Shown here piece by piece: positions 2,574 to 63,410 of a stretch of DNA of 64,000 nt. This stretch comes from Chloroflexota bacterium (GTDB taxonomy: Bacteria > Chloroflexota > Anaerolineae > UBA4142), in assembly GCA_016223105.1 (NCBI GenBank), contig JACRPR010000072.1:7982-71981 (forward strand), written 5' to 3'. The notes beneath the pieces were generated by a model. The model saw nothing but the letters and a program-made list of their open reading frames with translations. It was not told where the DNA came from and made no database searches. How positions within the stretch are numbered: the first letter of the stretch is position 1; each line of letters opens with the position of its first letter. The translations under genes were made by a program, and so were the position numbers.

Positions 2574-2660
2574 GTCAGTAAACAGCAAGCAGTAAACAGT
2601 AAACAGTGATCAGTCGCGCGTTGACTGTTCACTGTTTACTGACCACTGATCACTGGTGAT
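2574..2660. repeat. Word-repeat hairpin (CAGTAAA/CAGTGAT words) between nosZ and the next gene
   Basis: CAGTAAACAGTGATCAGTC / GACTGTTCACTGTTTACTG, a 19-bp stem with 1 mismatch, flanked by further word copies. Confidence 0.75.
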
Positions 2661-2663
2661 ACG

Positions 2664-3344
2664 ATGAAATTTTCTCTTAACTTTGATTCCGACGTTCAAG
2701 TTCTTTTGCCGGATGGAAGCAAACGTTCGCTCATGTCCTTTCTGATTCCGAACGCGCTGTTGATGTTTGCCGCGCTCGTGTTGATGGTTTCGATGATGTT
2801 GCCGTACTGGAGTATGTCGCTCAAAGCACCGCAATACCCCAAAGGGCTCAAGGTCAACGTCTACGTCAATCATCTCGAAGGCGATGTGCGCGAGATTGAT
2901 TCGCTCAATCATTATTTGGGTATGCCGCCGCTTGATGAAGGCGGACGCTTTGAACGCTCGATCTCCATCGTCGCGATCGCGACCCTGGGTTTACTTTTGC
3001 TCGCCGGTGTGTTTGTGCATAATCAATTCGCGGCTCTGCTCGCCTTGCCCGCGCTCGGCTACCCCTTGATTTTTCTCGCGGACTTGTGGTACATTCTGTA
3101 CCAGTACGGGCACAGCATTGATCCCAAGTCTGCGCTCGGCGGCGCGATCAAACCATTCACGCCGCCGGTTTTTGGCGAAGGCAAAATCGGTCAGTTCGGC
3201 ACATTTGCCGCCCCTGAAATCGGTTTATACCTCGCGATTTTTTCCGCGCTGATCGTCCTCGCCGGCTTGTGGTTTCATCGCGCCGCGTACAAACCTCTTG
3301 TGGATGCGCGCAAACGCGTTCACGCTAGCAAGGCAACTGCATGA
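2664..3344 (+). CDS. Integral membrane protein in the nosB position (NosB-like)
   Basis: 226 aa, about 4 predicted TM helices with a periplasmic loop. Sits directly downstream of nosZ. Its stop overlaps the nosD start (ATGA at 3341-3344). The assignment rests on gene position in clade II nos clusters, not on a recognised motif. Confidence 0.45.
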   Translation: MKFSLNFDSDVQVLLPDGSKRSLMSFLIPNALLMFAALVLMVSMMLPYWSMSLKAPQYPKGLKVNVYVNHLEGDVREIDSLNHYLGMPPLDEGGRFERSISIVAIATLGLLLLAGVFVHNQFAALLALPALGYPLIFLADLWYILYQYGHSIDPKSALGGAIKPFTPPVFGEGKIGQFGTFAAPEIGLYLAIFSALIVLAGLWFHRAAYKPLVDARKRVHASKATA

Positions 3345-5650
3345 AATTGCGAATCGCGATCCTGGTTTTTAGCGCGCTCGCGTTGATCTCGATCAGCCGC
3401 GCGCACGCGCAAACCGCGAACCTCTCGCACGCGCCCGCGCTCGTCGTCTCGCCGACCGGTCCCTTCACCACGATTCAATCTGCGCTCGATGCCGCGCGCC
3501 CGGGCGATCACATTCGCGTCGAGCGCGGCGTGTACGCCGGTCCGATTATCGTCACCAAATCAGTTACGCTCGAAGGCGAGAATTTTCCGGTGATTGACAA
3601 CGGCGGCGATGGCACGGTCGTTACGCTCGACGCACCCGGCGCGATTTTGCGCGGCTTTGAATTGCGCGGCAGTGGCGTCGAACCGGATCGCGATCACTCC
3701 GGCATCGCAGTCAACGCGTCGCGCGTGATCGTCGAAAACAATCGCTTGCGCGAAGTATTGTTCGGAATTTTTGTCGCGAAGGCGAGTGATGTAATCGTGC
3801 GCGGGAACGATATTTCAAGCAAATCCGAGTACGACACCGGACGCCAGGGCGACGCGATTCGCTTGTGGTACAGCCCGCGCGCCGTCGTCGAAAATAATTA
3901 CGTGCATCACGCGCGCGATCTGATCGCGTGGTACGCGTCCGATGTGATCATTCGCAATAATCGCGTCGAGCATAGCCGCTACGGCGTGCATCTGATGTAC
4001 TGCGACCATGCGGTGATCGAACACAATCGCATCTTCGATAATTCGGTCGGCATTTACACAATGTACTCGAACGATATTCTTTTGCGCGAAAATTTTATTC
4101 GCGGCACGCGCGGACCGAGCGGTTACGCGCTCGGCTTCAAAGACGCGGACAATGTGCGCGCGACGAACAATGTGCTCGTGGACAATCGCGGCGGATTTTT
4201 TCTCGACAACACGCCGGTTACGCCGCAAGGCGAAGGATTGTTTCGCGACAACATTCTCGCGTTCAACGATGTCGGCGCGATTTTGATGCCGGCGGTGCGC
4301 GGCGCGAATTTTGAACACAACACCTTTTGGGAAAATGTCGAGCAGGTCGCGATTCAAGGAAGCGGCAAACTTGTCGGCAATCACTGGAACGAAAATTTTT
4401 GGAGCGATTATGCGGGCTACGACGCGAACGGTGACGGGCAAGGCGACCTGGCTTATCGGTCGGATCGTTTCTTTGAAGGAATGGCGGATCGCATCCCGAC
4501 ATTGCGCGCGCTGATTTACAGTCCGGTCGCGCAAGCGATTGAATTTGCCGGCTCCGCGTTCCCGATTGTGAAACCACAACCGAAAATGAGCGATCCAAAA
4601 CCGGCGATGCAAGCCGCGCCGATTCCTGGTTTTGCCTTGCCGACGCGCGATGGCGCGGGCGCGATGACCGGCGCGGCAATCGCGTTGTTATTGTTCGGCA
4701 TTGTGTCCGGCGCGTTTTCTGTCATTGCGAGCAAAGCGAAGCAATCCCCAACCGAGACCCGAAGGGTTTTCGGAAACCCTTCGGGTCTGTCCGCGTCCGT
4801 GCGCGTGGAAAATTTTTCCAAGCAGTACGGCAAGGTGCGCGCGATTGAAAACGTTTCGTTCGACGCGCGACCGGGCGAAGCATTGGCATTGTGGGGCGCA
4901 AACGGCGCGGGCAAAACAACTTTGCTCAAAGCAATCCTGGGATTGATTGATTATCGCGGCAAAATTCTGGTCGCCGATTTCGACGCGGCGCGCGCGGGAA
5001 AACAAGCGCGCGCGAACATCGGTTACGTGCCACAAGAAGCGACGTTCTACGATCTCAACGTACAAGCAACGCTCGAATTTTACGCGCGCCTCAAAAAAGC
5101 GGATCCCGCGCGCGTCCCGGTTTTGCTCGAACGCGTCGGACTCGCGGAACATGCGCGCAAACCGGTGCCCGCGTTATCGGGTGGACTCAAGCAACGACTC
5201 GCGCTCGCGGTCGCGCTGTTGAGCGATCCGCCGATTTTACTGCTCGACGAGCCGACCGCGAATCTCGACACACGCGCGCGGCGCGATTATCTCGCGCTCT
5301 TGTCCGCGTTGCATCACGAAGGCAAGACGTTGATCTTTGCGTCGCATCGCATCGAAGAAGTCGAAACGCTCGCGGATCGCGTGTTGATGATCGAAGCCGC
5401 GCAACTCGCCGAGATCATAACGCCGGAAGAATTGCGCGCGCGCCTCGCGACCGAAATCGAAATGACATTGTGGGTTGACGACGCGCAACGCGTCGCCGCG
5501 CGCGATTGTCTCGCGAATGCCGGGTTCGATCCGCGCGTCAACGGGCGCGGCACGGTGATTGTGCGCGTGCGCGCGGAACAAAAAATGCGCGCGTTCGATC
5601 TGCTGAATGAGTGCGGGGTCACGATCAAGAATTTCGAGATCGAGAATTAG
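3341..5650 (+). CDS. nosD-nosF: NosD::NosF fusion: periplasmic beta-helix Cu-maturation protein, TM helix, then ABC ATPase
   Basis: A single 769-codon frame. Signal peptide MKLRIAILVFSALALISISRAHA and a NosD-like repetitive beta-helix body. TM segment MTGAAIALLLFGIVSGAFSVIA. NosF-like ATPase with Walker A GANGAGKT, signature LSGGLKQR and Walker B LLLDEP. Confidence 0.85.
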   Translation: MKLRIAILVFSALALISISRAHAQTANLSHAPALVVSPTGPFTTIQSALDAARPGDHIRVERGVYAGPIIVTKSVTLEGENFPVIDNGGDGTVVTLDAPGAILRGFELRGSGVEPDRDHSGIAVNASRVIVENNRLREVLFGIFVAKASDVIVRGNDISSKSEYDTGRQGDAIRLWYSPRAVVENNYVHHARDLIAWYASDVIIRNNRVEHSRYGVHLMYCDHAVIEHNRIFDNSVGIYTMYSNDILLRENFIRGTRGPSGYALGFKDADNVRATNNVLVDNRGGFFLDNTPVTPQGEGLFRDNILAFNDVGAILMPAVRGANFEHNTFWENVEQVAIQGSGKLVGNHWNENFWSDYAGYDANGDGQGDLAYRSDRFFEGMADRIPTLRALIYSPVAQAIEFAGSAFPIVKPQPKMSDPKPAMQAAPIPGFALPTRDGAGAMTGAAIALLLFGIVSGAFSVIASKAKQSPTETRRVFGNPSGLSASVRVENFSKQYGKVRAIENVSFDARPGEALALWGANGAGKTTLLKAILGLIDYRGKILVADFDAARAGKQARANIGYVPQEATFYDLNVQATLEFYARLKKADPARVPVLLERVGLAEHARKPVPALSGGLKQRLALAVALLSDPPILLLDEPTANLDTRARRDYLALLSALHHEGKTLIFASHRIEEVETLADRVLMIEAAQLAEIITPEELRARLATEIEMTLWVDDAQRVAARDCLANAGFDPRVNGRGTVIVRVRAEQKMRAFDLLNECGVTIKNFEIEN
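4721..4749 (+). repeat. Family C half-element (GTCATTGCGAGCAAAGCGAAGCAATCCCC) inside the nosD::nosF linker
   Basis: Same motif as the left arm of the 79-bp element at 19355-19433. Translated here as VIASKAKQSP. Confidence 0.7.
4755..4788. repeat. Palindrome family P copy (AGACCCGAAGGGTTT-tcgg-AAACCCTTCGGGTCT), in frame in the nosD::nosF linker
   Basis: 15-bp perfect arms with a 4-nt loop. Translated as ETRRVFGNPSGL. Confidence 0.85.
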
Positions 5651-5727
5651 GGGTTGGAAGTTGGAAGTTGGAAATTAGAGATTGGATTGTCGCGCGAGGC
5701 GCATCCAGCATCCAACGTCCAACTTCA
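5651..5727. repeat. Word-repeat hairpin (GGAAGTT/GGATTGT words) between nosDF and nosY
   Basis: GGTTGGAAGTTGGAAGTTGGAAATTAGAGATTGGAT ... ATCCAGCATCCAACGTCCAACTTC. Confidence 0.7.
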
Positions 5728-6565: not shown

Positions 6566-7053
6566 GAAAATCCCAATTACCAATTACCAATTACCAATTA
6601 CTCCTGGGTTTGAGTTTGCTGATTGCGCTATTCCTGAGCGCGTGCGCGCAACCAACCGGCGAGCCGAAACCGCCGGACATTGTGTACAATCGCGATATGT
6701 GCGAAGCGTGCGGAATGATTATCAGCGATGCGCGCTTTGCCGCCGCGACGTTGACGACAGACGGACGATCGCTCAAGTTCGATGACGCGGGCGAAATGTT
6801 CGGTTATCACGCGCGCAATTCCCAGGTTCAAGTGCGCGCGTGGTTCGTCCACGATTACGATTCGCAAAAATGGATCAATGGCAAGGACGCGTTTTACGTG
6901 ATCGCGCGCGACATCAAATCGCCGATGGGCACCGGCGTCGCGACATTCGCAGAGCGCGCGAACGCGGAAACTTTGGCGAAACGCTTCAACGTCAATGTGT
7001 TGACCTTCGATCAAGCTTTCACGGCAATCAAGGAGGGCAAATCGGGAATGTAA
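6562..7053 (+). CDS. nosL: NosL copper-chaperone lipoprotein
   Basis: Start overlaps the nosY stop (ATGA). Lipobox LSAC. DMCEACGMII metal-binding motif typical of NosL. Confidence 0.85.
   Translation: MRKSQLPITNYQLLLGLSLLIALFLSACAQPTGEPKPPDIVYNRDMCEACGMIISDARFAAATLTTDGRSLKFDDAGEMFGYHARNSQVQVRAWFVHDYDSQKWINGKDAFYVIARDIKSPMGTGVATFAERANAETLAKRFNVNVLTFDQAFTAIKEGKSGM
6574..6601 (+). repeat. Tandem heptamer (CAATTAC)x4 inside the nosL 5' end
   Basis: Four exact 7-nt units, translated as PITNYQLL in the signal-peptide n-region. Related word runs at 33557-33611 and 48075-48102. Confidence 0.9.
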
Positions 7054-7496: not shown

Positions 7497-7542
7497 AGAC
7501 CCGAAGGGTTCGCTTTGCGAAACCGCTTCGGGTCTCTTTTTT
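7497..7542. terminator. Family P palindrome (degenerate copy) acting as a convergent-gene terminator
   Basis: AGACCCGAAGGGTT-cgctttgcga-AACCGCTTCGGGTCT followed by CTTTTTTATTT. Lies between the cytochrome c stop (7491) and the stop of the minus-strand gene (7541). Confidence 0.7.
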
Positions 7543-9208: not shown

Positions 9209-9248
9209 TAAAATTATCCTTGCGAATTTTGAAATTCTAAATCCAATA

Positions 9249-9373
9249 CCTTCGCCAAAATCTTCCCACTGATTCAAAGGAACACGGATGAAGGAAAATA
9301 AATTGAAAATATCCGTGTTCTCGCGAAGCGTATCCGTGGGGAATTTTTTCGTTCGTGCAAGAATTGGCGAAGG
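9249..9373 (+). repeat. MITE-like element, family T (copy 2 of 2)
   Basis: CCTTCGCCAAAATCTTCCCACTGATTCAAAGGAACACGGATG...GAATTGGCGAAGG. Matches 191-310. Confidence 0.75.
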
Positions 9374-9407: not shown

Positions 9408-9498
9408 GGATTCGACCCCTTCGGCTTCGTTCAGGGCAATTGGCTTCAGCGCGCGGAGCGGTTTGTCCGGCCGAGCCACCGCGTAAACGCTCGACTCC
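9408..9498 (+). repeat. MITE-like element, family M, long form
   Basis: GGATTCGACCCCTTCGGCTTCGTTCAGGGCAATTGGCTTCAGCG...CCGCGTAAACGCTCGACTCC. Abuts the stop codon of gene 9500..10186. Confidence 0.8.
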
Positions 9499-10218: not shown

Positions 10219-10277
10219 GGACTCGACGCTTTAGCGGGTTGCTCGTCAAGCGAGTCACCGCGTAAACGCTCGACTCC
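10219..10277 (+). repeat. MITE-like element, family M, short form
   Basis: GGACTCGACGCTTTAGCGGGTTGCTCGTCAAGCGAGTCACCGCGTAAACGCTCGACTCC. Confidence 0.8.
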
Positions 10278-10365: not shown

Positions 10366-10402
10366 CAAAAACCCGAAAGGTTTTCGAAAACCTTTCGGGT
10401 TT
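10366..10402 (-). terminator. Family P-like palindrome with U-tract, terminator of the FKBP gene
   Basis: AAACCCGAAAGGTTTTCGAAAACCTTTCGGGTTT, followed on the minus strand by TTTTGTTT. Lies 8 nt after the stop at 10410. Confidence 0.7.
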
Positions 10403-10836: not shown

Positions 10837-11088
10837 CTAACCCAGCTCCGGCGGAATCGTCAGTTTGCGTTTGCCGCCGACCTTCATCCCGGCGACGCCT
10901 TGATCCCAGCCCTGGATCACTTGCCCCGCGCCAAGCGCAAACGCAAACGGTTGCATGCGATCGTACGACGCATCGAATTGTTTGCCGTTCGTCAACGTGC
11001 CGCGATAATGCACGGTGACGCGTTTGCCCGCGACCGCTTCCGCACCCGCGCCGATTTGCAAATCTTCAATTATAAGTTGGTTCGACAA
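10837..11088 (-). pseudogene. Truncated tandem FKBP duplicate (a 48-nt internal deletion creates a TAG)
   Basis: TTG start at 11088 after AAGGAG. Aligns with 10410..10802 up to PPELG, then TAG at 10837-10839. The in-frame remnant FEVELLEVG* follows. Confidence 0.65.
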
Positions 11089-11104
11089 TTTGATCTCCTT
11101 GGAA

Positions 11105-11180
11105 TTTAGATGTTGGAAATTGGAGGTTAGAAGTTGGAACGCGCAATCCAACTTCCAACTTCTAACATCCAACATCCAAT
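11105..11180. repeat. Word-repeat hairpin (GGAAGTT/GGATGTT words) downstream of metK
   Basis: GATGTTGGAAATTGGAGGTTAGAAGTTGGA-acgcgca-ATCCAACTTCCAACTTCTAACATCCAACATC. Confidence 0.75.
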
Positions 11181-12387: not shown

Positions 12388-12406
12388 TTATTTGCTCCTC
12401 ATTTTT

Positions 12407-12467
12407 GATTTCAAATTTCAAATTTCAGATTGATGAATCTGAAATCTGCAATCTGAAATCTGAAATT
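12407..12467. repeat. Word-repeat hairpin (GATTTCA/AATCTGA words) between ahcY and metK
   Basis: GATTTCAAATTTCAAATTTCAGATT-gatga-ATCTGAAATCTGCAATCTGAAATCTGAAAT. Confidence 0.8.
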
Positions 12468-12468: not shown

Positions 12469-13764
<1,296 letters not shown>

Positions 13765-13794
13765 TTAGAAGTTGGATGTTGGAAGTTAGATGTT

Positions 13795-13879
13795 GGATTC
13801 GACCCCTTCGGCTTCGCTCAGGGCAATTGGCTTTAGCGGGTTGTTCGCTCGCGGAAAAACCGCGTAAACGCTCGACTCC
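13795..13879 (+). repeat. MITE-like element, family M, long form
   Basis: GGATTCGACCCCTTCGGCTTCGCTCAGGGCAATTGGCTTTAGCGGGTTGTTCGCTCGCGGAAAAACCGCGTAAACGCTCGACTCC. Confidence 0.85.
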
Positions 13880-14530: not shown

Positions 14531-14564
14531 AGACCCGAAGGGTTTTCGAAAACCCTTCGAGTCT
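14531..14564. repeat. Palindrome family P copy, intercistronic
   Basis: AGACCCGAAGGGTTTTCGAAAACCCTTCGAGTCT, between the kinase stop (14568) and the V4R start (14506). Confidence 0.85.
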
Positions 14565-15512: not shown

Positions 15513-15589
15513 TCGAACTCCAGTAAATAGTGATCAGTGAACAGTGGACAGTGAACAGTGAACAGGTTTATTCTTCCACGATAAATGCC

Positions 15590-16066
15590 TTATAATTTGA
15601 ATCGCCGCGCAAACTCGGCGGGTGTCAAAATCGGGATTCGCTGAAATGATTTGAGTACGGTCAGATCGCGATCGCCGGAGACGATGTAATCCGCATCGCC
15701 TTCAACCGCGCAAGCGAGAATTGCTACATCTTTGGGATCACGCAACGCGCTTACCGGTTTTTTAATGCCAGGCGTGATCACCGCGCTCGTCACCAAGAAA
15801 TCTACCAACGCGTCGCCGCGCTCTGCCACCTGTGCGTATTTTTTAGTGATATGTGGTCGGCGGATGGTAGTTTGATATTCCTCGATCAAGTAGCGTGAGG
15901 TGAGTAGCATGATCTGACCATTCCGCGCCGCTTGAAAAATCCGCGCGGAAGGACTGAGCGTTACGATGCTCGCACTGACCAGGACATTGGTGTCAATGAC
16001 GACTCGGGGCAAATTTCTCCGCGCGAATTTCGTGAACCACGCGATTAACATCCGCCATAACTTCAT
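15590..16066 (-). CDS. PIN-domain toxin (VapC-like)
   Basis: RVVIDTNVLVSA N-terminal acidic motif and later D residues (GDADYIVSGDRDL). The start is ambiguous (ATG 16066, ATG 16051 or an internal TTG). Overlaps the antitoxin 3' end. Confidence 0.7.
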   Translation of the reverse strand: MKLWRMLIAWFTKFARRNLPRVVIDTNVLVSASIVTLSPSARIFQAARNGQIMLLTSRYLIEEYQTTIRRPHITKKYAQVAERGDALVDFLVTSAVITPGIKKPVSALRDPKDVAILACAVEGDADYIVSGDRDLTVLKSFQRIPILTPAEFARRFKL

Positions 16067-16247: not shown

Positions 16248-16255
16248 GTTTCACC

Positions 16256-17293: not shown

Positions 17294-17307
17294 CAATCTC
17301 TCCGAGC

Positions 17308-44484: not shown

Positions 44485-44496
44485 AGTTCGAGTGGG

Positions 44497-48072: not shown

Positions 48073-48074
48073 AG

Positions 48075-48102: not shown

Positions 48103-50151
48103 CAACGCGCCGCGCACCGAACCACCCGCCGCGCGCAAACGTCGCCGCGCGTCGTCCGCCGAAACACGCGCGAGCGCGATCACAATCGCGGTCTTCACTT
48201 CGCCGTCCGCGCGCGCGAGCAATTGCTCCGCCTCGTCCTCCGCGATGCGCGCCGCGGTCGCGACGATGCGCCGCGCGCGGTCGCGCAGTTTCACATTCGT
48301 CGCTTGCACATCCACCATCAAATTGCCGAACGTTTTGCCAAGCCGGATCATTACGCCGGTGCTGAGTTTGTTCAGCACCAATTTTTGCGCGGTGCCGGAT
48401 TTCATCCGCGTCGAACCGGCGATCACTTCGGGCCCGACGAGCGGCGCGATGTTGATCTGCGCGACATCCTGGATCGGCGCGGGGCGATTGCACGCGACCG
48501 AGATCGTCAGCGCGCCGCGCGCGTGCGCTTCGATCAACGCGCCGATCACATACGGCGTGCGCCCGCTCGCCGCGAGCCCGACGACCGAATCGCGCGCGGA
48601 CACATTCAAATTCGCGAGATCGAGTTTGCCTTGCTCCGCGTCATCCTCCGCGCCTTCAATCGAACGCGTGATCGCCGCGTTGCCGCCCGCGATGATCGCG
48701 ATCACTTGATCGGGGCGCGTGCTAAATGTCGGCGGCATTTCCGACGCGTCGAGCACACCGAGCCGCCCCGACGTGCCTGCGCCGATGTAAATCAACCGAC
48801 CACCCGCGCGCATCCGTTCCGCAATCGCGTCCACCGCTTGCGCGATGTGCGGCAGTTCAACCGCAACCGCGTGCGCGACGCGTTGATCTTCCGCGTTGAT
48901 GCGCCGCAACATTTCGAGCGTGGACAACGTATCAATCTCCGCTGTCGCGGGGTTGTGCGCTTCGGTGAAGTTGGAGGTTGGATGTTCGATGTTGGAAGTT
49001 GGACGCGCGCCGGGGGTGATGTTGCCGAGAATGACCGGATGCCGCGCGCCGGTTGCCGCGGGGACATTGCCGGCGCGCTGAAACCAGGTCTCGTGCGCGA
49101 GAATCGCGAACGCGAGCGCTTCTTTCGCTTCGCTCGCGACGCCCAGCTCATCAATAGCGATCACGCGCGCGGGCGCGAGCAAATCGCGCAGAATTTGCAT
49201 CAAGGTTCGATTCAACGCGCCGCCGCCGGAAACGATCACCTCGTCCACGCGCGTCGGCAGAAAATCGCGATACGCTTGCGCGATCGAGTGCGCGGTGAAC
49301 GCGGTGAGCGTCGCGATAATGTCGTGATCGGAAATGCCGCGCGCTTTTGCGCGCTCCCACACCGGCGCGCCGAATTGCGCGCCGAACAATTCGCGCCCGG
49401 TTGTTTTTGGCGGCGATTGTTGCAAGTACGGTTCGTTCATCAACTCGCGCAAGAGTTGATCATTCACGCGACCTTGCGCGGCGAGCGCGCCATCGCGATC
49501 AAATGTTTGCGCGCCATTCGTCGCGCGTTGCGTCGCGTAATCAATCAGCATATTGCCGGGACCGGTGTCGAACGCGAATGGCGGTAGGGGCGACGCATGC
49601 GTCGCCCCTACCGGCGGCAAATACGTCACATTCCCAATGCCGCCAATGTTCTGCGCGGCGCGCGTCAAAACGGGATGCGCGAACAATATCACGTCGAGGT
49701 GCGGCACGAGCGGCGCGCCTTGTCCGCCCGCCGCCATATCGCGCGTGCGAAAATTTGAAATCGTCGTGATGCCAGTGCGCTCCGCGATCACCGCCGGTTC
49801 GCCGAGTTGCATTGTGGACGCGTCCTTGCCTTCGGGAATATGCCACAGCGTTTGACCGTGACTGCCGATGAGATCGACCTGGTCCGGTTGCAGTTGCGCG
49901 CGCGCGATCACATCGAGCGCGGCGCGCGCGAACGCTTCGCCGAGTTGAAAGTTGAGCGCGCACAAACGATCCACCGTGCCGTGCGCGGGGCGAAAGCACG
50001 CGAGAATTTCGTCGCGCAACGCGGGATCGAAATGCGCGTGATGATGCGCGCGCAGTTTCCATTCGAGCGCGGGCGGTGCGCCGGTAATTTCGACGACGAC
50101 GGCATCAATGCCATCTGCGGATGTGCCTGAAATCATTCCAACGACAAGCAT
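48091..50151 (-). CDS. anmK-murQ: AnmK::MurQ fusion: anhydro-N-acetylmuramic acid kinase fused to N-acetylmuramic acid-6-phosphate etherase
   Basis: A single 686-codon frame. N-terminus [18 protein letters not shown] (AnmK). C-terminal SIS domain [25 protein letters not shown] (MurQ). The linker is repeat-encoded. Confidence 0.85.
48967..49003 (+). repeat. GGAAGTT/GGATGTT word run forming the AnmK-MurQ linker
   Basis: GAAGTTGGAGGTTGGATGTTCGATGTTGGAAGTTGGA, translated on the minus strand as [13 protein letters not shown]. Confidence 0.8.
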
Positions 50152-50162
50152 AATTTAATCCT

Positions 50163-50262
50163 GGGGGTTGGAAGAGTGTCATTCCGAACGAAGTGAGGAA
50201 TCTCCTGTTCGTCACGCGAGACACTTTGCTTTTCCAACTTCCAACATCTAATTCCCGACTTC
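50163..50262. repeat. Nested hairpin (outer GGAAGTT words, inner GTCATTCCGAACGAAGTGAGGAATCTCC element) between the GntR gene and anmK::murQ
   Basis: GGGGGTTGGAAG-AGTGTCATTCCGAACGAAGTGAGGAATCTCCTGTTCGTCACGCGAGACACT-TTGCTTTTCCAACTTCCAAC. Confidence 0.7.
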
Positions 50263-50985
50263 CAACGTCGAGTGGAATTTGTAACGGTCGCCGCGATAGA
50301 TTGAATGAACGTGTTCGATCAAGATGCCTTGGTCGGTATACGTCACGCGTTCCATTTTGAGCACCGGCGCGGGCAAGTCCAATCGCAACAATGTGGCTTG
50401 GCGCGCGTCGGCGAGCCCGGCTTCGATCGTTTGTTCCGCGCGCGTGAGTCGAAAACCGTACTCGTGTTCAAGCACCGCGTAAAGCGATTCGGTTGCGAAA
50501 TCGTGCCGAAGCAAATTTGGAACGCGCGCGTGCGGAATGTGGACGGTTTCAATCGCGAGCGGTATTTTGTCGGCGATGCGGAGACGCGCGAGCAAAACGG
50601 TTTCGGAATTGGGGAGAATGTTCAACCGTTGCGCGAGCGCGTCATCCGCGCGCACGATCCGCGCTTTGAGTACGCGCGATGCGGGGTGACTACCGCGCGC
50701 TTGGACATCCTGGCTAAAGCCGGAGAGCGTTTTGAGTTCCTGATCAATTTTGGGCGTGTTCGCGAACGTGCCTTTGCCGATGCGACTGTAGATCAAACCT
50801 TCGCGCGTGAGATCGAGCAATGCCTGCCGCACGGTCATACGACTGACGCGAAAACGCGCGCACAGATCGCGTTCGGAGGGAAGTTGCTGGTGCGCGCGCA
50901 ATTTGCCGGCAAGAATGTCGGCACGGAGTGAATCTTTAAGTTGGGCGTACAACGGGAGGGGGTGGTTGCGGTTCAGACGCGCCAT
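50248..50985 (-). CDS. GntR/HutC-family transcriptional regulator (UTRA effector domain)
   Basis: ATG 50985. wHTH region LPSERDLCARFRVSRMTVRQALLDL. C-terminal UTRA-like region. Confidence 0.85.
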   Translation of the reverse strand: MARLNRNHPLPLYAQLKDSLRADILAGKLRAHQQLPSERDLCARFRVSRMTVRQALLDLTREGLIYSRIGKGTFANTPKIDQELKTLSGFSQDVQARGSHPASRVLKARIVRADDALAQRLNILPNSETVLLARLRIADKIPLAIETVHIPHARVPNLLRHDFATESLYAVLEHEYGFRLTRAEQTIEAGLADARQATLLRLDLPAPVLKMERVTYTDQGILIEHVHSIYRGDRYKFHSTLEVGN

Positions 50986-52572: not shown

Positions 52573-52703
52573 ACTTGTTCCTCCTTACTTGACCTCATTT
52601 AGATGACTCGTATCACCGCTCCATTGGTAAGTATAGAACATTTGTCCGCTAAAATATACCACGAAAATACGGACGCGTGCATCAAGATTTCGTTTGAAAA
52701 AGT

Positions 52704-52740
52704 AAAAACCCGAAGGGTCTGAGAGACCCTTCGGGTTTTT
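52704..52740 (-). terminator. Family P-like palindrome with flanking A/T runs, terminator of the liv operon
   Basis: AAAAACCCGAAGGGTCTGAGAGACCCTTCGGGTTTTT, 7 nt after the stop at 52747. Confidence 0.8.
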
Positions 52741-52746
52741 ATTCCA

Positions 52747-56036: not shown

Positions 56037-56059
56037 CTCTGTAGTTGCATAGTGAAATA

Positions 56060-56119
56060 GTTCGATAGTGCGATAGTTAAAAACTATCGCACTATCGAAC
56101 TAGGAAACTATCGCACTAT
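56060..56119. repeat. Word-repeat hairpin (CGATAGTG words) between the liv substrate-binding-protein gene and livH
   Basis: GTTCGATAGTGCGATAGTT-aaaa-AACTATCGCACTATCGAAC followed by TAGGAAACTATCGCACTAT. Confidence 0.8.
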
Positions 56120-57507
56120 TTGCGAAGTTGTCCGTCCGCCGATTTGGCTTCGAGCGGCCAAACGATGTTCGTGATCAATTTGCCGGCAGAATCTTTCTGC
56201 CACTGCATATAAACCATATCGTGCGCGGTCTGCTTGCCGTGCGTCTTGGCATCGGTGCTGAATTTGACGACGCCGTAGAACGTCATCAAGTTCATCTTGT
56301 CGAGCGCGGCGACAATTTTCGCGGGATCAACACTGTCCGCATCTTCAATCGCTTTTTGGAGAATCAAACCCTGAGCGTAACCGCCGGCGGAGTGGTACGA
56401 CGGCGTATCTTTGTATTTCGCGACGTACGCGTCGGTGAACGCTTTGACACTCACACCATAGTAGGGGATGTTCGCGGCTTTGGCGGATTCCGCGCTGTAC
56501 GTCACTTGGGGTTCCCACTGGCTGGGTCCGATGATGTACTGCGCGGCATCGCCGATATCTTTAAAGGTCGGTTCCGGCGGCGCGACGAGCAAAGAGACAA
56601 AGCGCACCGGAATCTTTTTCTCGTAAAGTTGTTTGGCGAAGGTCGTGCCATCGGCAAAGTGACCGCCGCCCAAAATCGCGTCGGGGTTGGTCGCGCTGAT
56701 CTTGTTGATGAACGGAGAGAAATCGGTCGCGCCGGTATCGTACCCCTCGAACATCACGACGTTCAACCCTTTGCTTTCCGCGTACGGTTTCAGCGCGTTC
56801 GCGACCGAGGTCGAGAAGGCATCTTTTTCGTACACGATCGCGATCTTTTTCGCGGTCGGGTCAATCTTCATCAACATATCTGCCGCGCCGGTGAGATAGC
56901 GACTCGCGGGCGTGTACAATTGGAACGTGTTCTTGAAACCTTGTTCCATCGTTACATCGTCCGCCGCGCCGGCGGTGATCATCACTTTGCCGTTCTGTTC
57001 ACCGACGACTGCCGCGGCGCGCGCGAGACCGCTACTGTATGGGCTGAGGAGGAAATCGGCTTTGTCTTCGTTGATGAGTTTGGCGTAGAGCGCTTGCACG
57101 CGATCGGTCTTACTCTCATCATCGTAGAATTTCATTTCCGGCATATAGACCGTGCCGTCTTTCAACTTGATGCCGCCGGCTTTCGCCACATCATCAAGCC
57201 ACAACTGTAAACCTTCGACCTGTTTCTTTGAAGCGACTTGTTGCGCGCCGGTCTGGGATGCGGTGAAACCGATCAAAAGTTTCTTTGCCGCGACGGGTGG
57301 TTTAGTCGCGGCGGCGGGCGGCTTGGTTGCTTCAGGCGCTTTGGTCGCGGCGGCGGGCGCAGAAGTCGCGGCGACCGGCGCGGTCGTTGGCGCGGGCGCT
57401 TTGGTGGGGGGCGCGGATGTGGGTGCCGCCGTCGGCGCGGCGCACGCGGTCAGGATCAGCGCAGTCAATAGAACGCCGATCCACAACAATCGGGGAAACT
57501 TGCTCAT
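56116..57507 (-). CDS. Type-1 periplasmic-binding-fold (LivJ/K-like) substrate-binding lipoprotein
   Basis: ATG 57507 (GGAG upstream). Lipobox LTAC followed by a ~55-aa Pro/Thr/Ala tether. Confidence 0.8.
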   Translation of the reverse strand: MSKFPRLLWIGVLLTALILTACAAPTAAPTSAPPTKAPAPTTAPVAATSAPAAATKAPEATKPPAAATKPPVAAKKLLIGFTASQTGAQQVASKKQVEGLQLWLDDVAKAGGIKLKDGTVYMPEMKFYDDESKTDRVQALYAKLINEDKADFLLSPYSSGLARAAAVVGEQNGKVMITAGAADDVTMEQGFKNTFQLYTPASRYLTGAADMLMKIDPTAKKIAIVYEKDAFSTSVANALKPYAESKGLNVVMFEGYDTGATDFSPFINKISATNPDAILGGGHFADGTTFAKQLYEKKIPVRFVSLLVAPPEPTFKDIGDAAQYIIGPSQWEPQVTYSAESAKAANIPYYGVSVKAFTDAYVAKYKDTPSYHSAGGYAQGLILQKAIEDADSVDPAKIVAALDKMNLMTFYGVVKFSTDAKTHGKQTAHDMVYMQWQKDSAGKLITNIVWPLEAKSADGQLRK

Positions 57508-57673
57508 CGTCTTCTTCTCCTTTTTCTTTTCGCGCATCTTGGCGATTTTTGGAAATTCATTCCATTGGCACAGGCATTGGGTTGCGAACCCGCGTGTGGC
57601 GCAATCATCACCTCGCTGTGATTAAATTTGCAAGGAAGGCAGTGGAGACGAAAGGTTAAAATATCTTAATGCG

Positions 57674-57707: not shown

Positions 57708-58988
57708 TTACGCCAACAACGCGAATGGCTCTTCAATCAGATTCGCGAGCGCGTCGAGAAATTGCGCGGCGCGCGCGCCATCCACAACACGATGATCGCT
57801 CGAAAGCGTGAGCGTCAGCATCGGGCGCACGGCGGGCTGACCCTTGATCGCGATCACGCGCTCCGCGATGCGTCCGACCGCGAGGATCGCGGCTTGCGGC
57901 GCGTTGATGATCGCGCTGAACGCGTCCACGTTGTACATTCCCAGGTTCGTCAGCGTGAATGTGCCGCCCGCGATGTCCGCCGGTTTCAACTTGTTCGCGC
58001 CCGCGCGTTCCACAATATCTTTGCGGCGCGTCGCGATTTCACCAATCGCAAGCGCGTCCGCGCGATGCACAACCGGCACGATCAAGCCATCCTCAAGCGC
58101 GGTCGCGATGCCGATGTTGATCGCGTCGTTGAGTTTGATTGTGTTGTCCATCCAGCTCGCGTTCACGCGCGGATGATCACGCAACGCGATCGCGATCAGC
58201 TTGACGAGCAAATCCGTGTACGTCGGTTTGACGCCGGAGCGTTTCGCGATGATCGGCGCGATCCGCGCGCGCAATTCGACGAGCGCGGTCGCGTCCACAT
58301 CGCGCGTGAGAAAAAAGTGTGGCACGGTTGTCCAACTTGTCGTCATTCGTTCCGCCATCACGCGCCAGACGGTGGAGATGTCAGCATCCTGAGCGGAGCG
58401 AAGCGGAGTCGAAGGATGCGGTGATCCGGCGCGAGCAGGGGCGAGGGTGTAAGTCGCCGACATGTTTAACACATCATTCGCGATGATTGCGCCGTCGGGA
58501 CCAGAGCCGCGCAACGTTGCAAGATCAATGCCGCGTTCACTCGCGAGACGACGCGCTTTGGGTGACGCGGGGACGAGACCCGAAGGGTTTGGCAAACCCT
58601 TCGGGTCTTTGTTTAGGTACGCGATCACATCCGCCTTCTCAATTCGTCCGCCGGTCGGCTTCACGCGCGCGAGATCAACGCGATGCTCCTCCGCGATTTT
58701 GCGCGCGACCGGCGACGCGCTCAGACCCGAAGGGTTTACAAAACCCTTCGGGTCTTCAACAATCAGCGCGATCGTTTGCCCGACCGGGATCACATCCCCT
58801 TCGCGTGCGGTGCCGTTCGAAAGTACACCGCTCGTGGTCGCTTCGATCTCGACGGTAACTTTGTCCGTCTCGATCTCCATAATCGGCTCGCCCTTGATGA
58901 CCTGGGCACCTTCGCTTTTGAGCCAGCGTAAAATTTTTCCGGTATCCTGCGCCATTTCGAGAGCAGGCATGATGAATTCGGTAGTCAT
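57708..58988 (-). CDS. Dihydrolipoamide acyltransferase (E2) of a 2-oxoacid dehydrogenase complex, with two peripheral-subunit-binding domains
   Basis: ATG 58988. Lipoyl domain IETDKVTVEIE. Two PSBDs (PVARKIAEEHRVDL..., SPKARRLASERGIDL...). Catalytic domain with DHRVVDG. Confidence 0.88.
   Translation of the reverse strand: MTTEFIMPALEMAQDTGKILRWLKSEGAQVIKGEPIMEIETDKVTVEIEATTSGVLSNGTAREGDVIPVGQTIALIVEDPKGFVNPSGLSASPVARKIAEEHRVDLARVKPTGGRIEKADVIAYLNKDPKGLPNPSGLVPASPKARRLASERGIDLATLRGSGPDGAIIANDVLNMSATYTLAPARAGSPHPSTPLRSAQDADISTVWRVMAERMTTSWTTVPHFFLTRDVDATALVELRARIAPIIAKRSGVKPTYTDLLVKLIAIALRDHPRVNASWMDNTIKLNDAINIGIATALEDGLIVPVVHRADALAIGEIATRRKDIVERAGANKLKPADIAGGTFTLTNLGMYNVDAFSAIINAPQAAILAVGRIAERVIAIKGQPAVRPMLTLTLSSDHRVVDGARAAQFLDALANLIEEPFALLA
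58387..58412 (-). repeat. Short repeat (reverse complement of 32486-32511) inside the E2 linker
   Basis: TCCTGAGCGGAGCGAAGCGGAGTCGA, translated as STPLRSAQD. Confidence 0.75.
58576..58608. repeat. Palindrome family P copy, in frame in an E2 linker
   Basis: AGACCCGAAGGGTTTGGCAAACCCTTCGGGTCT, translated as KDPKGLPNPSGL. Confidence 0.88.
58723..58755. repeat. Palindrome family P copy, in frame in an E2 linker
   Basis: AGACCCGAAGGGTTTACAAAACCCTTCGGGTCT, translated as EDPKGFVNPSGL. Confidence 0.88.
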
Positions 58989-59002
58989 CCAAGTGAGTTC
59001 CT

Positions 59003-59060
59003 TTATTTCCCTTATTTCCCTCATTTCCGTATCGGGAAATGAGGGAAATGAAGGAAATTA
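59003..59060. repeat. Word-repeat hairpin (GGAAATGA words) between the M24 and E2 genes
   Basis: ATTTCCCTTATTTCCCTCATTTCC-gtatc-GGGAAATGAGGGAAATGAAGGAAAT. Confidence 0.8.
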
Positions 59061-61195: not shown

Positions 61196-61210
61196 TCGCA
61201 ACTCCAATTG

Positions 61211-61285
61211 TAATGCGTGATGCGTGATGCGTGATGCGTGAACCTCACGAATCACGCATCACGTTTTACGTTTTACGTTTTACGA
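61211..61285 (-). repeat. ACGTTTT/GATGCGT composite element abutting the E1-beta stop codon
   Basis: TAATGCGTGATGCGTGATGCGTGATGCGTGA-acc-TCACGAATCACGCATCACG followed by (TTTTACG)x3. The stop at 61280-61282 lies inside it. Confidence 0.85.
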
Positions 61286-62266
61286 TTTCCCGCAGAGCAT
61301 ACGCGCCATTTCAAAAACTGTTTGCTCCGTCGGCACCGTTACATCTTCGAGCGTGGGCGAAAATGGCACCGGCACATTCAGTGCACCCATTCGTTTGACC
61401 GGCGCGTCGAGATAGTAAAACGCGCCTTCCGCGATGACCGACGCGATTTCGGCGGTGACACCGTACTGCTCGTACCCTTCGTCAATCACAATCGCGCGCG
61501 AAGTTTTTTTCGCGGACTCGATACAAGTTTTTTTATCGAGCGGCAACGTCGTGCGCGGATCGATCACCTCCGCGCCGATACCGATTTGCGCGAGCATCTC
61601 CGCCGCGCCGAGCGCGACCTGCACCATCGAACTTGTCGCGACGAGCGTGATGTCACTGCCCGCGCGTTTCACATCGGCAACGCCGAACGGAATCGTGTAA
61701 TCATCCGTCGGTACAACACCTTTCATTTTGAACATCATCTTGTCTTCAAAAAAAACGACCGGGTTGTTATCGCGAATCGCGGTTTTCAGCAAACCCTTGG
61801 CATCGTACGGCGTTGATGGAATCGCGACTTTCAACCCAGGAATGTGGCTGACCCACGCGTGCAAACTTTGCGAGTGTTGCGCCGCCGAGCGTCGCGTCGC
61901 GCCCATCGTCGTGCGAAACACCATCGGCACATTCAGTTTGCCGCCGGACATGTAATGCACTTTGGCGGCTTGGTTCGCGATTTGATCCATCGCCAGTGTG
62001 AGAAAATCGCCGAACATTAAATCCACAACCGGGCGCATCCCGGTCATCGCCGCGCCAACGCCGATGCCGGAAAAACCAGGTTCAGAAATCGGCGTGTCAA
62101 TCACGCGCGCTGTGCCAAACTCTTCGACCAAGCCGGATAAAACTTTGAACGGCGTTCCCGCTTCGGCGACATCTTCGCCGAAGATGAACACGCGCGCATC
62201 GCGCCGCATCTCCTCCGCGAGCGCTTCGCGGATCGCTTCGGCAAACGTGATTTCGCGATCAGACAT
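61280..62266 (-). CDS. 2-oxoacid dehydrogenase E1 component, beta subunit
   Basis: 328 aa. VFIFGEDV...GTARVIDTPISEPGFSGIGVGAAMTGMRPVV transketolase-like pyrimidine-binding domain. Confidence 0.9.
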   Translation of the reverse strand: MSDREITFAEAIREALAEEMRRDARVFIFGEDVAEAGTPFKVLSGLVEEFGTARVIDTPISEPGFSGIGVGAAMTGMRPVVDLMFGDFLTLAMDQIANQAAKVHYMSGGKLNVPMVFRTTMGATRRSAAQHSQSLHAWVSHIPGLKVAIPSTPYDAKGLLKTAIRDNNPVVFFEDKMMFKMKGVVPTDDYTIPFGVADVKRAGSDITLVATSSMVQVALGAAEMLAQIGIGAEVIDPRTTLPLDKKTCIESAKKTSRAIVIDEGYEQYGVTAEIASVIAEGAFYYLDAPVKRMGALNVPVPFSPTLEDVTVPTEQTVFEMARMLCGKS

Positions 62267-62288: not shown

Positions 62289-62364
62289 TATGGGACGCGG
62301 ACAAACGCGGATGAACGCGGATAATTTTCTCTTGTCCATGTTTGTCCGTGTTAATCCGCGTCCA
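62289..62364. repeat. Family R hairpin element (copy 3 of 3) between E1 alpha and E1 beta
   Basis: TATGGGACGCGGACAAACGCGGATGAACGCGGATAATTTTCTCTTGTCCATGTTTGTCCGTGTTAATCCGCGTCCA. Confidence 0.85.
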
Positions 62365-62373
62365 ATTTTATTT

Positions 62374-63345
62374 TTACGCATACACATCTTCATCCACCTC
62401 GCGCGCATCCGGGAACGGCGCATCGAGCGCGAACGCGACGCCGGCTTCGACTTCCGCGTTCACATCCGCTTCAATGCGTTCAAGCACGCTTGCATCGGTC
62501 AGTTTTTGCGCGATAAGACGCGTCGAGAGAATTTTAAGCGGGTCGCGATTCGTCATCCATTCGCGTTCTTCTTCTTTCGCGCGATAGTACGCGCGATTAA
62601 TGTCGCCGACGTGATGTCCATAATAGCGATACGTGTCGCACTGCAAAAACGCCGGACCTTCACCGCGCCGCGCGCGTTCGACGAGCTTTTGCATCGCCAT
62701 GAAAACCGCGTGCACATCTTGACCGTCCACGATTTCCGCGCGCATCCCAAACGTTTGCGCGCGCGCGATAAATTCACCGGCGGCAGTTTCGGTGTGATGC
62801 GTGTACTCGCCGTACAAATTATTTTCGCAGACGTAAATCACCGGCAATTTCCACAACGCCGCCATGTTCGCAACTTCGTAAAACAATCCTTGCCCCAACG
62901 CGCCATCGCCAAAAAAGCATACGGCGACCTGCCCACTGCGCCGCATCTTTGCCGACATTGCCGCGCCCGTCGCGATGCCCATGCTTCCACCGACAATCGC
63001 GTTCGCGCCCAGGTTGCCGGAATCTGGGTCGGCGATGTGCATCGAGCCGCCCTTGCCGCGACAATAGCCGGCTTCTTTGCCGAGCAATTCCGCGAACATG
63101 CGATCCACGCGCGCGCCTTTCGCGAGACAGTGCCCATGCCCGCGATGTGTGCTGGTGATGTAATCGTCGCGATCGAGTGCCTCGCACACGCCGACGGCAA
63201 CCGCTTCCTCGCCGGAATACAGATGCGCGAGTCCCGGCATTTTCGCGCTCTTGTACAGTTCGTTCACTTTTTCTTCAAACGCGCGAATCTTTGCCATTTG
63301 TTGATACATCTGCAAAGATTGTTCGAGGTCTATGTGTTCGGTCAT
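62374..63345 (-). CDS. 2-oxoacid dehydrogenase E1 component, alpha subunit (TPP-binding)
   Basis: 323 aa. YSGEEAVAVG...HRGHGH...GDGALGQGLFYEVANMAALWKLPVIYVCENN TPP motif. Confidence 0.9.
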   Translation of the reverse strand: MTEHIDLEQSLQMYQQMAKIRAFEEKVNELYKSAKMPGLAHLYSGEEAVAVGVCEALDRDDYITSTHRGHGHCLAKGARVDRMFAELLGKEAGYCRGKGGSMHIADPDSGNLGANAIVGGSMGIATGAAMSAKMRRSGQVAVCFFGDGALGQGLFYEVANMAALWKLPVIYVCENNLYGEYTHHTETAAGEFIARAQTFGMRAEIVDGQDVHAVFMAMQKLVERARRGEGPAFLQCDTYRYYGHHVGDINRAYYRAKEEEREWMTNRDPLKILSTRLIAQKLTDASVLERIEADVNAEVEAGVAFALDAPFPDAREVDEDVYA

Positions 63346-63356
63346 TCGTTGACTCC

Positions 63357-63410
63357 AAAACGTAAAGCGTAAAACGTGAAACGTAATTGCGCTTTACGTT
63401 TTACGTTTTA
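63357..63410 (-). repeat. ACGTTTT-word hairpin abutting the stop codon of the dehydrogenase gene
   Basis: AAAACGTAAAGCGTAAAACGTGAAACGTAA-ttgc-GCTTTACGTTTTACGTTTTAT. The stop at 63408-63410 lies inside it. Confidence 0.8.

Follow-up and report, generated by a model that had tools for sequence, protein, structure and literature searches.

The 64,000-nt stretch of DNA analyzed here (the window; contig JACRPR010000072.1 of the Chloroflexota assembly GCA_016223105.1) is a segment of a bacterial chromosome with 56% GC content and genes mostly on the minus strand. Spacers between its genes contain hairpins in which one arm is a tandem array of a short word and the other arm is the reverse complement of that array. 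An earlier note, made from the sequence alone, had reported this construction at more than 20 sites, and our analysis confirms that these word-array hairpins between genes are real and far from random. Pfam matches identify the surrounding genes as a nosZ-nosDF-nosY-nosL operon; mtnA, pfkB, ahcY, and metK; PMT_2-family (dolichyl-phosphate-mannose-type) membrane glycosyltransferases; lgt, rnhB, and rplS; two opp-type and one liv-type ABC operon; anmK-murQ; and an E1alpha/E1beta/E2 2-oxoacid dehydrogenase cluster. Among species-representative genomes, the best matches to the MetK protein are Chloroflexota (Anaerolineae, Thermogemmatispora) with only 67–68% identity. AhcY homologues with 94–95% identity were found in the NCBI 'Chloroflexi bacterium' metagenome-assembled genome (MAG) GCA_016219275.1 and in JGI metagenomes, and OppB homologues with 90–95% identity in further metagenome contigs. 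We refer to homologous loci in these related genomes and contigs by L-numbers (L081, L088, and so on).

Tandem arrays were located with Tandem Repeats Finder (TRF), overlapping arrays were merged, and two-armed sites were identified by a reverse-complement pairing test. The window contains 86 merged arrays of period 5–12, compared to a mean of 19.7 (maximum 28) in 30 dinucleotide shuffles. Arrays of period 7 or 8 account for 50 of them, against 6.2 in the shuffles, and periods 9 and 10 are also present. An array followed within 40 nt by its own reverse-complement array occurs 14 times, against 0.03 times in the shuffles. More than half of the arrays (53/86) are inside or bordering intergenic DNA, a total of 5,691 bases or 8.9% of the window; the remaining genic arrays are mostly GC-rich and low-scoring, at about chance level. 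Unit families recur two to six times within the window. When 15 hairpins were folded as sense RNA, z-scores ranged from -2.85 to -9.59, and for 14 of the 15 none of 200 shuffles folded as well.

The earlier note had described its sites as having complementary word arrays for arms, some of them being only one-armed. We read each of its 25 coordinates individually and found a TRF array at every one; about 14 of the 25 are two-armed, those at 2574, 5651, 11105, 12407, 17400, 27979, 34811 (where the hairpin is adjacent), 39880, 39989, 44497, 46671 (which has a short 3' arm), 50163, 56060, and 59003. The other 11 or so, at 6574, 13750, 15521, 18530, 27300, 29152, 30971, 33557, 36906, 48075, and 48967, are one-armed. 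The note did not list at least nine more such sites, at 33808, 34846, 37173, 42551, 46345, 47973, 61210, 62290, and 63357. The same construction is present in the orthologous spacers of independent NCBI and JGI assemblies, so the hairpins are neither assembly artefacts nor confined to the window.

Each family consists of a short invariant core (CAGT, GTTGGA, CAGATT, CGT, TAGTTG, ACGCGGA, or GGAAAT) and one to three freely varying positions. The unit repeats every 7, 8, 9, or 10 nt, and the reverse-complement array follows after a loop of 3–20 nt, giving stems of 13–28 bp without a U-tract. Over 87 units of the CAGT family the core is kept while position 5 is A in 25, C in 22, G in 23, and T in 17, a contrast that is partly circular in that families were chosen by their core. 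Stem pairs are mostly near-perfect Watson-Crick pairs (92%), and the stems are probably young.

The word hairpins sit in a narrow position between genes. Of 15 word hairpins read in sense orientation, 12 have a stem that starts -2 to 29 nt past the stop codon of the preceding gene, and 12 have a stem that ends 2–43 nt ahead of the following start codon. The earlier statement that most of them lie between co-directional operon genes is borne out (in the nos operon, between ahcY and metK, in the two opp-type and the liv-type operons, and in the E1alpha-E1beta-E2 cluster); it does not hold for the arrays at 6574, 18530, and 48967, which are in frame within open reading frames (ORFs), or for the hairpin at 17400, which is in a riboswitch.

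In the plus-strand nos operon, a CAGTAAA/CAGTGAT word hairpin (2574–2663, plus; z = -4.8) fills the spacer between nosZ (540–2573) and the next gene (2664), and a GGAAGTT/AACNTCC word hairpin (5651–5727, plus; z = -4.1) lies between nosDF and nosY as identified by Pfam match. On the minus strand, a TCAGATT/AATCTGA word hairpin (12401–12466; z = -4.7) spans the interval between the stop codon of ahcY and the Shine-Dalgarno sequence of metK, and a GGATGTT/GGAAGTT word hairpin (11099–11179; z = -8.5) connects metK to the first FKBP gene. The latter junction carries the same GGATGTT/GGAAGTT family in L086 and plain terminator-like hairpins in L081 and L082. In the ahcY-metK spacer and the other orthologous spacers that we read, the Shine-Dalgarno sequence is found just past the 3' arm.

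A word hairpin stands immediately after each of the three solute-binding protein (SBP) genes of the ABC operons (34955–36889, 44557–46212, and 56116–57537), and the permease and ATPase genes downstream of the SBP genes mostly overlap or abut. All of the following operon features are on the minus strand. The first SBP gene is followed by a composite (34811–34958; z = -8.7) of (AAAACGT)x10 starting from the stop codon, a CGTGATG hairpin (34846–34890), and (TTTCCAA)x5; the second by a CAGTAAA word hairpin that leads to oppB (44485–44556; z = -4.8); and the liv-type SBP gene directly by an CGATAGTN 8-mer word hairpin with 21 perfect base pairs (56057–56119; z = -9.6). Elsewhere there are an GGATAGTT/AACTATCC 8-mer word hairpin (39879–39971; z = -8.7), an CACAGAANNN 10-mer word hairpin (39990–40060; z = -7.9), and a (GGATGAA)x4 array with a short complementary 3' arm (46669–46725). 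An ACGCGGANNA (ACGCGGA) 10-mer word hairpin (42551–42627; z = -8.8) lies between oppC and a GNAT gene; a second copy of this family (46345–46430; z = -7.8) carries the same C-to-T change in every 3'-arm unit, and a third (62290–62365; z = -4.4) lies between E1alpha and E1beta. The dehydrogenase cluster also has an TTTCCNTNA/GGGAAATNA 9-mer word hairpin between an M24 peptidase gene and the E2 gene (58998–59058; z = -7.2), of a family that is found at other junctions in L081, L082, and L086, and an AAAACGT/ACGTTTT word hairpin between a 3-hydroxyisobutyrate-dehydrogenase-like gene and E1alpha (63357–63410; z = -2.9).

A composite of (AAAACGT)n beginning at a stop codon and then a CGTGATG hairpin occurs four times. 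Besides the one behind the first SBP gene, 61210–61288 (minus; z = -5.7) holds (AAAACGT)x4, beginning at the stop codon of E1beta, and then a CGTGATG word hairpin, AAAACGT units at 37173–37228 (minus) overlap the 3' end of an oppF-like gene, supply its stop codon, and are followed by a CGTGATG word hairpin, and an AAAACGT/GATGCGT array at 33808–33858 (minus) starts at the TAA stop codon of a GT2 gene. Within these, the AAAACGT units proper (37206–37228, 34887–34958, 61261–61288, and 33829–33858) start at or overlap the end of the upstream ORF, so the stop codon TAA belongs to the repeat unit; with a period of 7 nt, which 3 does not divide, three units give TAA in all three frames. We considered whether every word carries a stop codon and rejected this idea: about 8 of 12 arrays abutting gene ends have TAA, TAG, or TGA in the sense strand, which is not clearly above the expectation for AT-rich 7-mers.

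The absence of a U-tract noted earlier also holds up. The 8 nt downstream of the word hairpins contain 0–4 T, compared to 5–7 T for three plain palindromes, namely two of the AAAAACCCGAAGGGTCT...AGACCCTTCGGGTTTTT type at 10369 and 52703 (more than 130 nt from the next gene) and a third palindrome at 30507. These plain palindromes with T-runs indicate that the genome uses canonical terminators at operon ends and that the word hairpins are something else. An intrinsic (Rho-independent) terminator is ruled out for the word hairpins by the low downstream T count together with the next start codon only 2–43 nt away in 12 of 15.

The palindrome AGACCCGAAGGGTTT-N3-4-AAACCCTTCGGGTCT forms a terminator-like hairpin with A/T runs between genes and also occurs in frame in ORFs. 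Copies are at 58723–58755, 58576–58608, 4755–4788, 7497–7535, 10369–10402, 14531–14564, and 52703–52741. Two are in E2 linkers, where each precedes an E3-binding domain and is translated as DPKGFVNPSGL or DPKGLPNPSGL, and one is at the NosD-NosF junction, where NosD and NosF are fused in one 769-aa ORF. The in-frame copies are reminiscent of Rickettsia palindromic elements.

One word hairpin has become part of a known RNA structure. A SAM-I (S-adenosylmethionine) riboswitch (RF00162, 74.7 bits) lies upstream of mtnA at 17352–17534 (minus), and its P3 stem is extended by an ATAGTTNN 8-mer word hairpin (17397–17480, minus). In the orthologous riboswitches (L081 6864–7014, L082 5746–5903, and L086 6475–6657), the insert at the P3 apex differs: it is a 77-nt ATAGTTNN 8-mer hairpin in the window and L086, and a 48–54-nt GGTAATT 7-mer hairpin in L081 and L082. 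A search of the window against Rfam 15 at the gathering score returned only the SAM riboswitch and no family for the word hairpins, and at E ≤ 1 only weak matches to eukaryotic miRNA-precursor models (generic hairpins).

Between mtnA and pfkB (window 15513–17296; L081 7103–8941; L082 5818–8239; L086 6716–8266), the small-gene content differs in each relative: the window has a PIN toxin, L081 and L082 have MNT/HepT, and L082 and L086 have an Asp_protease_2 gene. The inserted gene in L086 is flanked by two CAGT-word hairpins, of which the window retains only the 3' arm, a one-armed CAGTGAA array (sense CTGTTCA; 15521–15565, minus) just upstream of pfkB; the full hairpin is present in L086 and L082. 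A similar Asp_protease_2 gene with a small partner gene is inserted between two opp ATPase genes (38196–38890).

The elements and other repeats are also found inside one another. The CGCGAATC(A) 9-mer word hairpin (27979–28142, assigned to neither strand) holds in its loop a 60–90-nt element with terminal inverted repeats (TIRs; this copy at 28025–28084). Conversely, an AACGAAT word hairpin (47973–48020) lies inside another copy of the same TIR element (47900–48072), followed by an AATTACC array (48075–48099), the whole spanning 47973–48099 on the minus strand. At 50160–50266 (minus), GGAAGTT/AACTTCC word arms surround a plain hairpin, whereas L090 has just 6 nt in the orthologous spacer. The TIR element has seven copies in the window (9408–9498, 10219–10277, 13795–13879, 24837–24923, 28025–28084, 33720–33779, and 47900–48072), with ends GGAKTCGA...TCGAMTCC and an internal ...CCGCGTAAACGCTCGA motif; it has no Rfam match, and one copy is in frame in a 601-aa ORF. 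A further repeat of about 80–125 nt (ccttcgccaaaatcttcccacNgattcaaNggaacacggat..., with an internal inverted repeat) is present at 187–264 and 9245–9321 with 85% identity, and the 291-nt spacer holding the second copy is only 12 nt long in L086.

The remaining arrays lie upstream of or within genes, most of them one-armed. The one-armed sites between genes or in 5' regions are AAATTCC/AAATCTG (27291–27322, plus) in the 5' region of the gene at 27347, AAATGAC (29153–29186, minus) between lgt and rnhB, and an TAGTTGGA 8-mer with 5.8 units (36903–36952, minus) upstream of an SBP gene. An ATTTCAA/GATTTCA array (30973–31011, minus) is upstream of rplS. A GGATGTT/AACATCC array (13750–13798, minus) upstream of ahcY adjoins the TIR element at 13795–13879, beyond which a single remnant unit of the other arm is found. 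GAGAGATT and GGTAATT arrays (33537–33605, minus) occupy the extreme 5' end of a GH3 ORF, which is probably 5' untranslated region. Other arrays are in frame. A one-armed (CCAATTA)x4 array (6573–6601, plus) encodes MRKSQLPITNYQL in the n-region of the NosL lipoprotein signal peptide; three abutting arrays of TCAGATT, ACGCATN, and ACTTTTT (18476–18564, minus) are translated as the hydrophobic segment GFQISHFRFQILRITHYGLLFIFTFLLLTF of a PMT_2-family membrane glycosyltransferase; and a one-armed AACATCC/AACTTCC array (48970–49003, minus) is in the linker of an AnmK-MurQ(SIS) fusion ORF. Mechanical ORF calls enter arrays at 5654, 10837–11175, 31980–33680, and 46397–46633, so that start codons are over-extended, for example in nosY and the first FKBP gene. 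The nosY start is more likely the ATG at 5738, and that of the first FKBP gene lies downstream of the hairpin at 11099–11179. In automatic annotation of such genomes, starts will be misplaced and genes possibly fused, and the arrays can break short-read assemblies of Chloroflexota MAGs.

Comparison with close relatives shows that the position of a hairpin can persist while its words are exchanged. The ahcY-metK spacer contains a hairpin running from the stop codon to the Shine-Dalgarno sequence in four genomes whose flanking proteins are 91–97% identical, but the words are TCAGATT in the window and L082, CAATTAC in L081, and CAGTAGA in L086. Behind the oppA-like gene, CAGTAAA words are used in the window and L088, GATTGCA in L089 and L090, and GGTATTC-like words in L095, and more distant relatives have ordinary palindromes. 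Across 16 homologous SBP-oppB junctions with 67–95% protein identity, 12 have a hairpin with z ≤ -3.7, formed from unrelated sequences. Between L082 and L086, two spacers are completely different while the genes are 95–99% identical. The family at one junction can thus be replaced wholesale on a time-scale of about 5% nucleotide divergence, which these comparisons show directly.

Change in unit number is slower than would be expected of a hypermutable locus: contigs that are 99.3–99.7% identical differ by single-nucleotide polymorphisms and not in unit number, from which we conclude that the arrays are not hypermutable. Relatives at 93–95% identity do differ by insertion or deletion of whole units (window compared to L088, L089 to L090, and window to L082). 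Whole-unit changes point to replication slippage, the origin that had been suggested for the words, and the comparison of orthologous spacers proposed earlier did reveal words being gained and lost.

Within the window, the same irregular element can be found in unrelated operons. The nosZ spacer (2574–2663, in a plus-strand operon) aligns along its length with the oppA spacer (44485–44556, in a minus-strand operon); about 53 columns are near-identical, including the irregular units CAGTAAA-CAGTGAT-CAGTC and five of seven loop bases. They are oriented alike with respect to transcription, and a single 7-nt unit separates them. In its loop, the oppA spacer resembles the nosZ spacer more than it does the orthologous spacer of L088. 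The three copies of the ACGCGGA 10-mer family agree in the order of their units and in their ends, ATTGGACGCGGA...TCCGCGTCCCATAAAAA, and 34847–34914 is 91% identical to 61223–61288 over 68 nt. Shared irregular unit order in unrelated operons indicates that families are copied and not reinvented. The earlier note had overlooked both this relationship, that word families are dispersed homologous copies instead of independent inventions, and the swapping of whole hairpins between close relatives.

The vocabulary belongs to a narrow group of organisms. The words GGAAGTT, CAGT, GATTTCA, CAATTAC, GGAAATNA, and CGCGAAT are common to close relatives, at different junctions. Among 80 MetK loci, the same construction was found in only three other Chloroflexota contigs (L002, L006, and L015, with 61–65% GC), which use GC-richer words of their own, and was not found at the loci from Firmicutes and most other Chloroflexota. 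At oppB loci, the density of period-7/8 arrays is 4.5–8 per 10 kb at ≥90% identity and, if a few short contigs are excepted, mostly 0–3.6 per 10 kb at ≤78% identity. A scan of viral contigs gave no matches to the CAGT apex pattern, and matches to (GGAAGTT)3 in two unrelated contigs (34% and 49% GC), each with one one-armed array.

We favor, with some reservation, the interpretation that these elements are lineage-specific dispersed palindromic microsatellites, akin to the short tandemly repeated repetitive (STRR) heptamers of cyanobacteria and to repetitive extragenic palindromic (REP) elements, and that some of them serve as intercistronic mRNA stem-loops. We are confident in the descriptive part, that of a lineage-specific class of dispersed palindromic microsatellites; a role of the hairpins in mRNA is a tentative proposal. 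Replication slippage grows and shrinks the arms by whole units; since both arms are periodic, the stem still pairs after a change in unit number, offering a quick way to build or resize a stem. Whole elements are in addition copied or converted between unrelated spacers of one genome. Slippage is unable to explain shared irregular unit order and family swaps at about 5% divergence, so a copy-paste process must also act, for which ectopic conversion, template switching, or transposition are candidates. The elements sit where a hairpin is tolerated or wanted: in spacers between stop codon and Shine-Dalgarno sequence, in the loops of other repeats, at the apex of a riboswitch helix, and occasionally in in-frame protein linkers. 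Hairpins in operons would be co-transcribed in polycistronic mRNAs and, given stems without a U-tract, presumably would not terminate transcription. They may instead act as barriers to 3'-exonucleases and/or as processing sites for double-strand RNases, uncoupling the stability of upstream and downstream cistrons. The clearest functional case would be behind SBP genes, where a hairpin is kept across the family whatever its sequence. Of the remaining copies, many are probably passengers, either neutral or selfish.

Several observations weigh against this interpretation. If selection acted on the RNA strand, stem mismatches might favor G·U in the sense strand, but we counted 6 sense and 13 antisense in the window and 18 and 26 when relatives were included, with no bias. 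Selection on the stems at the RNA level is therefore not demonstrated, and this signature provides no argument for RNA function. A hairpin role does not apply to one-armed arrays or to those in frame in ORFs. At many junctions the hairpin of one genome has no counterpart in a close relative (for example, 96 compared to 6 nt, and 291 compared to 12 nt), a pattern more in keeping with neutral or selfish turnover than with function. No transposase domain was found by Pfam among the approximately 58 proteins of the window. No target-site duplication was seen at filled compared to empty junctions, where the relatives are too diverged for exact edges. Finally, GTAG, CTAC, CGTC, or GACG occurs near either foot in 6 of 18 hairpins, which is about chance and inconsistent in position.

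The most serious alternative, although a doubtful one, is that the arrays are a pure mutational by-product: slippage-prone replication or repair would make 7–10-nt arrays in unconstrained DNA, template switching at quasi-palindromes would invert them, and the functionless products would persist where harmless. Such an origin is consistent with the variable presence of elements among close relatives, the many one-armed arrays, the lack of G·U bias, and the arrays tolerated in frame in protein linkers and a signal peptide, and an excess of heptamer simple sequence repeats, common elsewhere too, has been put down to slippage of the polymerase (PMC4692102). However, it does not account for the hairpin that 12 of 16 relatives retain between SBP and permease genes although its sequence has turned over completely, nor for hairpins that end before the Shine-Dalgarno sequence. 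The irregular unit order common to distant loci is beyond slippage alone, and arrays that are stable at 99.3–99.7% identity are not hypermutable.

It is unlikely that the families are non-autonomous mobile DNA of the REP/REPIN or miniature inverted-repeat transposable element (MITE) type, each moved in trans by a dedicated hairpin-recognizing transposase (REP-associated tyrosine transposase, RAYT, or IS200-like) encoded elsewhere in the genome. Near-identical copies in unrelated operons, a vocabulary common to related genomes at different loci, wholesale replacement of elements, mutual nesting of word elements and other repeats in loops, and the defined ends of the ACGCGGA family all have the appearance of mobility. 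Yet the hairpin feet lack a GTAG/CGTC tag, 64 kb contain no transposase, and no target-site duplication was seen; at least 10 families would need many enzymes, and the unit number varies, unlike in typical cut-and-paste copies.

We also entertain, as a long shot, an uncharacterized lineage-specific copy-paste process directed by hairpins, in which a single-strand HUH/Y1-type enzyme or templated repair triggered by palindrome cleavage would write and overwrite the elements by recognizing structure and a short periodic core instead of a fixed sequence. If true, this would explain how a shared vocabulary moves among stop-proximal spacers, why repeat loops and a riboswitch helix apex are colonized, why copies within a genome resemble each other more than orthologous copies do, and why a divergence of about 5% is enough for whole elements to be swapped.

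An improbable alternative is that the arrays are periodic binding sites, with cores every 7–10 nt read by an RNA- or single-stranded-DNA-binding protein (for example, one with cold-shock domains at about 7 nt per domain) that would tune the translation or stability of the neighboring cistron. The pattern of core and variable positions (CAGT kept and position 5 degenerate over 87 units, with the circularity mentioned above) and the one-armed arrays directly upstream of start codons would suit such a protein, and this explanation has also been put forward for the TAACTGA repeats of Beggiatoaceae (PMC4679880) and the heptamers of Nostoc (bioRxiv 10.1101/2022.06.06.494920). Against it, the many unrelated cores and four periods would need many proteins or very loose specificity, the cores are buried in duplex at two-armed sites, and no candidate protein was identified. 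Least credible of all are non-canonical terminators or attenuators without a U-tract inside operons: the stems are long, stable, and directly after stop codons, but the same genome has canonical T-run terminators at operon ends, the hairpins lie 2–43 nt before the next cistron in operons needing co-expression (nosZ-nosDFY, oppABC, and E1alpha-E1beta), and one word hairpin is part of a riboswitch aptamer.

Three established repeat types were considered as candidates and rejected. In a MITE, a non-palindromic body lies between the TIRs, whereas here the whole element is a palindrome, and no target-site duplication is visible, as far as relatives too diverged for exact edges allow it to be seen. 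An integron attC site does not fit the flanking genes, which are core operon genes (nos, metK, opp, liv, and E1/E2), and there is no integrase in the window; there is, however, one locus of variable small genes with CAGT hairpins on its flanks. A CRISPR array is ruled out by context and anatomy.

Returning to the reading of the elements as dispersed palindromic microsatellites, the origin and function of short intergenic repeats (REPs, STRRs, heptamer arrays, and the like) are still poorly understood decades after such repeats were first recognized. This lineage is a rich natural experiment, with at least 10 word families, four unit lengths, differing families at the same junction in relatives a few percent apart, a conserved hairpin position behind SBP genes with replaced sequence, and a riboswitch helix that hosts two families. 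It makes testable the birth and exchange of RNA stem-loops, and the distinction between selfish, neutral, and regulatory repeats.

In enterobacteria, REPs downstream of malE and hisJ stabilize the upstream (SBP) segment of the mRNA, and the word hairpins behind all three SBP genes in the window occupy the same position. Like the REPs of proteobacteria and their composites (the bacterial interspersed mosaic elements, BIMEs, and the REP doublets called REPINs; PMC3733652, PMC3116915), the word hairpins are short, imperfect, multi-copy extragenic palindromes that fall into sequence families and lack a U-tract; like REPs, they are often between co-directional genes just after stop codons and also occur inside genes. 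Unlike REPs, they have no GTAG/CGTC tag, no RAYT was seen in the window, their arms are periodic with variable unit number, and there are many families. Within the same phylum, Chloroflexus aurantiacus has (GATAGRA)n heptamer satellites (Subirana & Messeguer 2019, PMC6749651), likewise derived from a heptamer and present in many copies per genome; the portion of that report drawn on here concerns one heptamer and describes no palindromic arrangement or operon context. The TAACTGA repeats of Beggiatoaceae and Microcystis are a single word, almost exclusively in direct orientation (one inverted in 170), and have been proposed to be unstructured (MacGregor 2015, PMC4679880). They resemble the arrays described here in being intergenic heptamers of 2–6 units that often end a few nt upstream of starts, with few in ORFs and a patchy phylogeny, but differ in that ours form hairpins and use many words.

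STRR heptamers are said to have been described in cyanobacteria by Mazel et al. in 1990, and Jackman & Mulligan (in 1995) reportedly found closely related cyanobacteria to have highly variable, structured nif intergenic regions built from such repeats. Similar to what we see, there are several heptamer families per genome, dispersed, intergenic, and also inside operons. Their units CCCCAGT, TTGGTCA, and CAACAGT do not equal any of the words here (the nearest being CAGTNNN compared to CAACAGT), and neither does GGGAATC of Xanthomonas. STRRs are mentioned in the work on Xanthomonas heptamers, in which only a few paired inverted arrays were found in Nostoc (PMC4692102); a different phylum and the 8–10-nt periods here are further differences.

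The closest described case is in Xanthomonas, where GGGAATC heptamers form 70–75 pairs of convergent arrays per genome that are able to fold into stem-loops (Rehm et al. 2015, PMC4692102). Those arrays are mostly transcribed, and in a sister species they are found in the same gene context with differing length and sequence (PMC4692102). Both systems have intergenic-enriched tandem heptamers, convergent pairs that form stem-loops, and length variation between relatives. Xanthomonas belongs to a different phylum and has one G-rich word with G-quadruplex potential, in contrast to at least 10 mostly AT-rich families here with periods of 7, 8, 9, and 10, no G-tracts, and replacement of one family by another at the same junction. 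The remark in the earlier note that the hairpins were not recognized as a described repeat class is thus not upheld, given the Xanthomonas convergent heptamer pairs (PMC4692102) and the heptamer arrays of cyanobacteria, Beggiatoaceae (PMC4679880), and Chloroflexus aurantiacus (PMC6749651). We lean towards regarding the elements as the counterpart, in Anaerolineae-type Chloroflexota, of the cyanobacterial STRRs and the inverted heptamer arrays of Xanthomonas, occupying the genomic niche of enterobacterial REPs. They are not a categorically new class; what sets them apart from these known systems is their many families, four periods, family swaps at fixed junctions, and colonization of a riboswitch helix.

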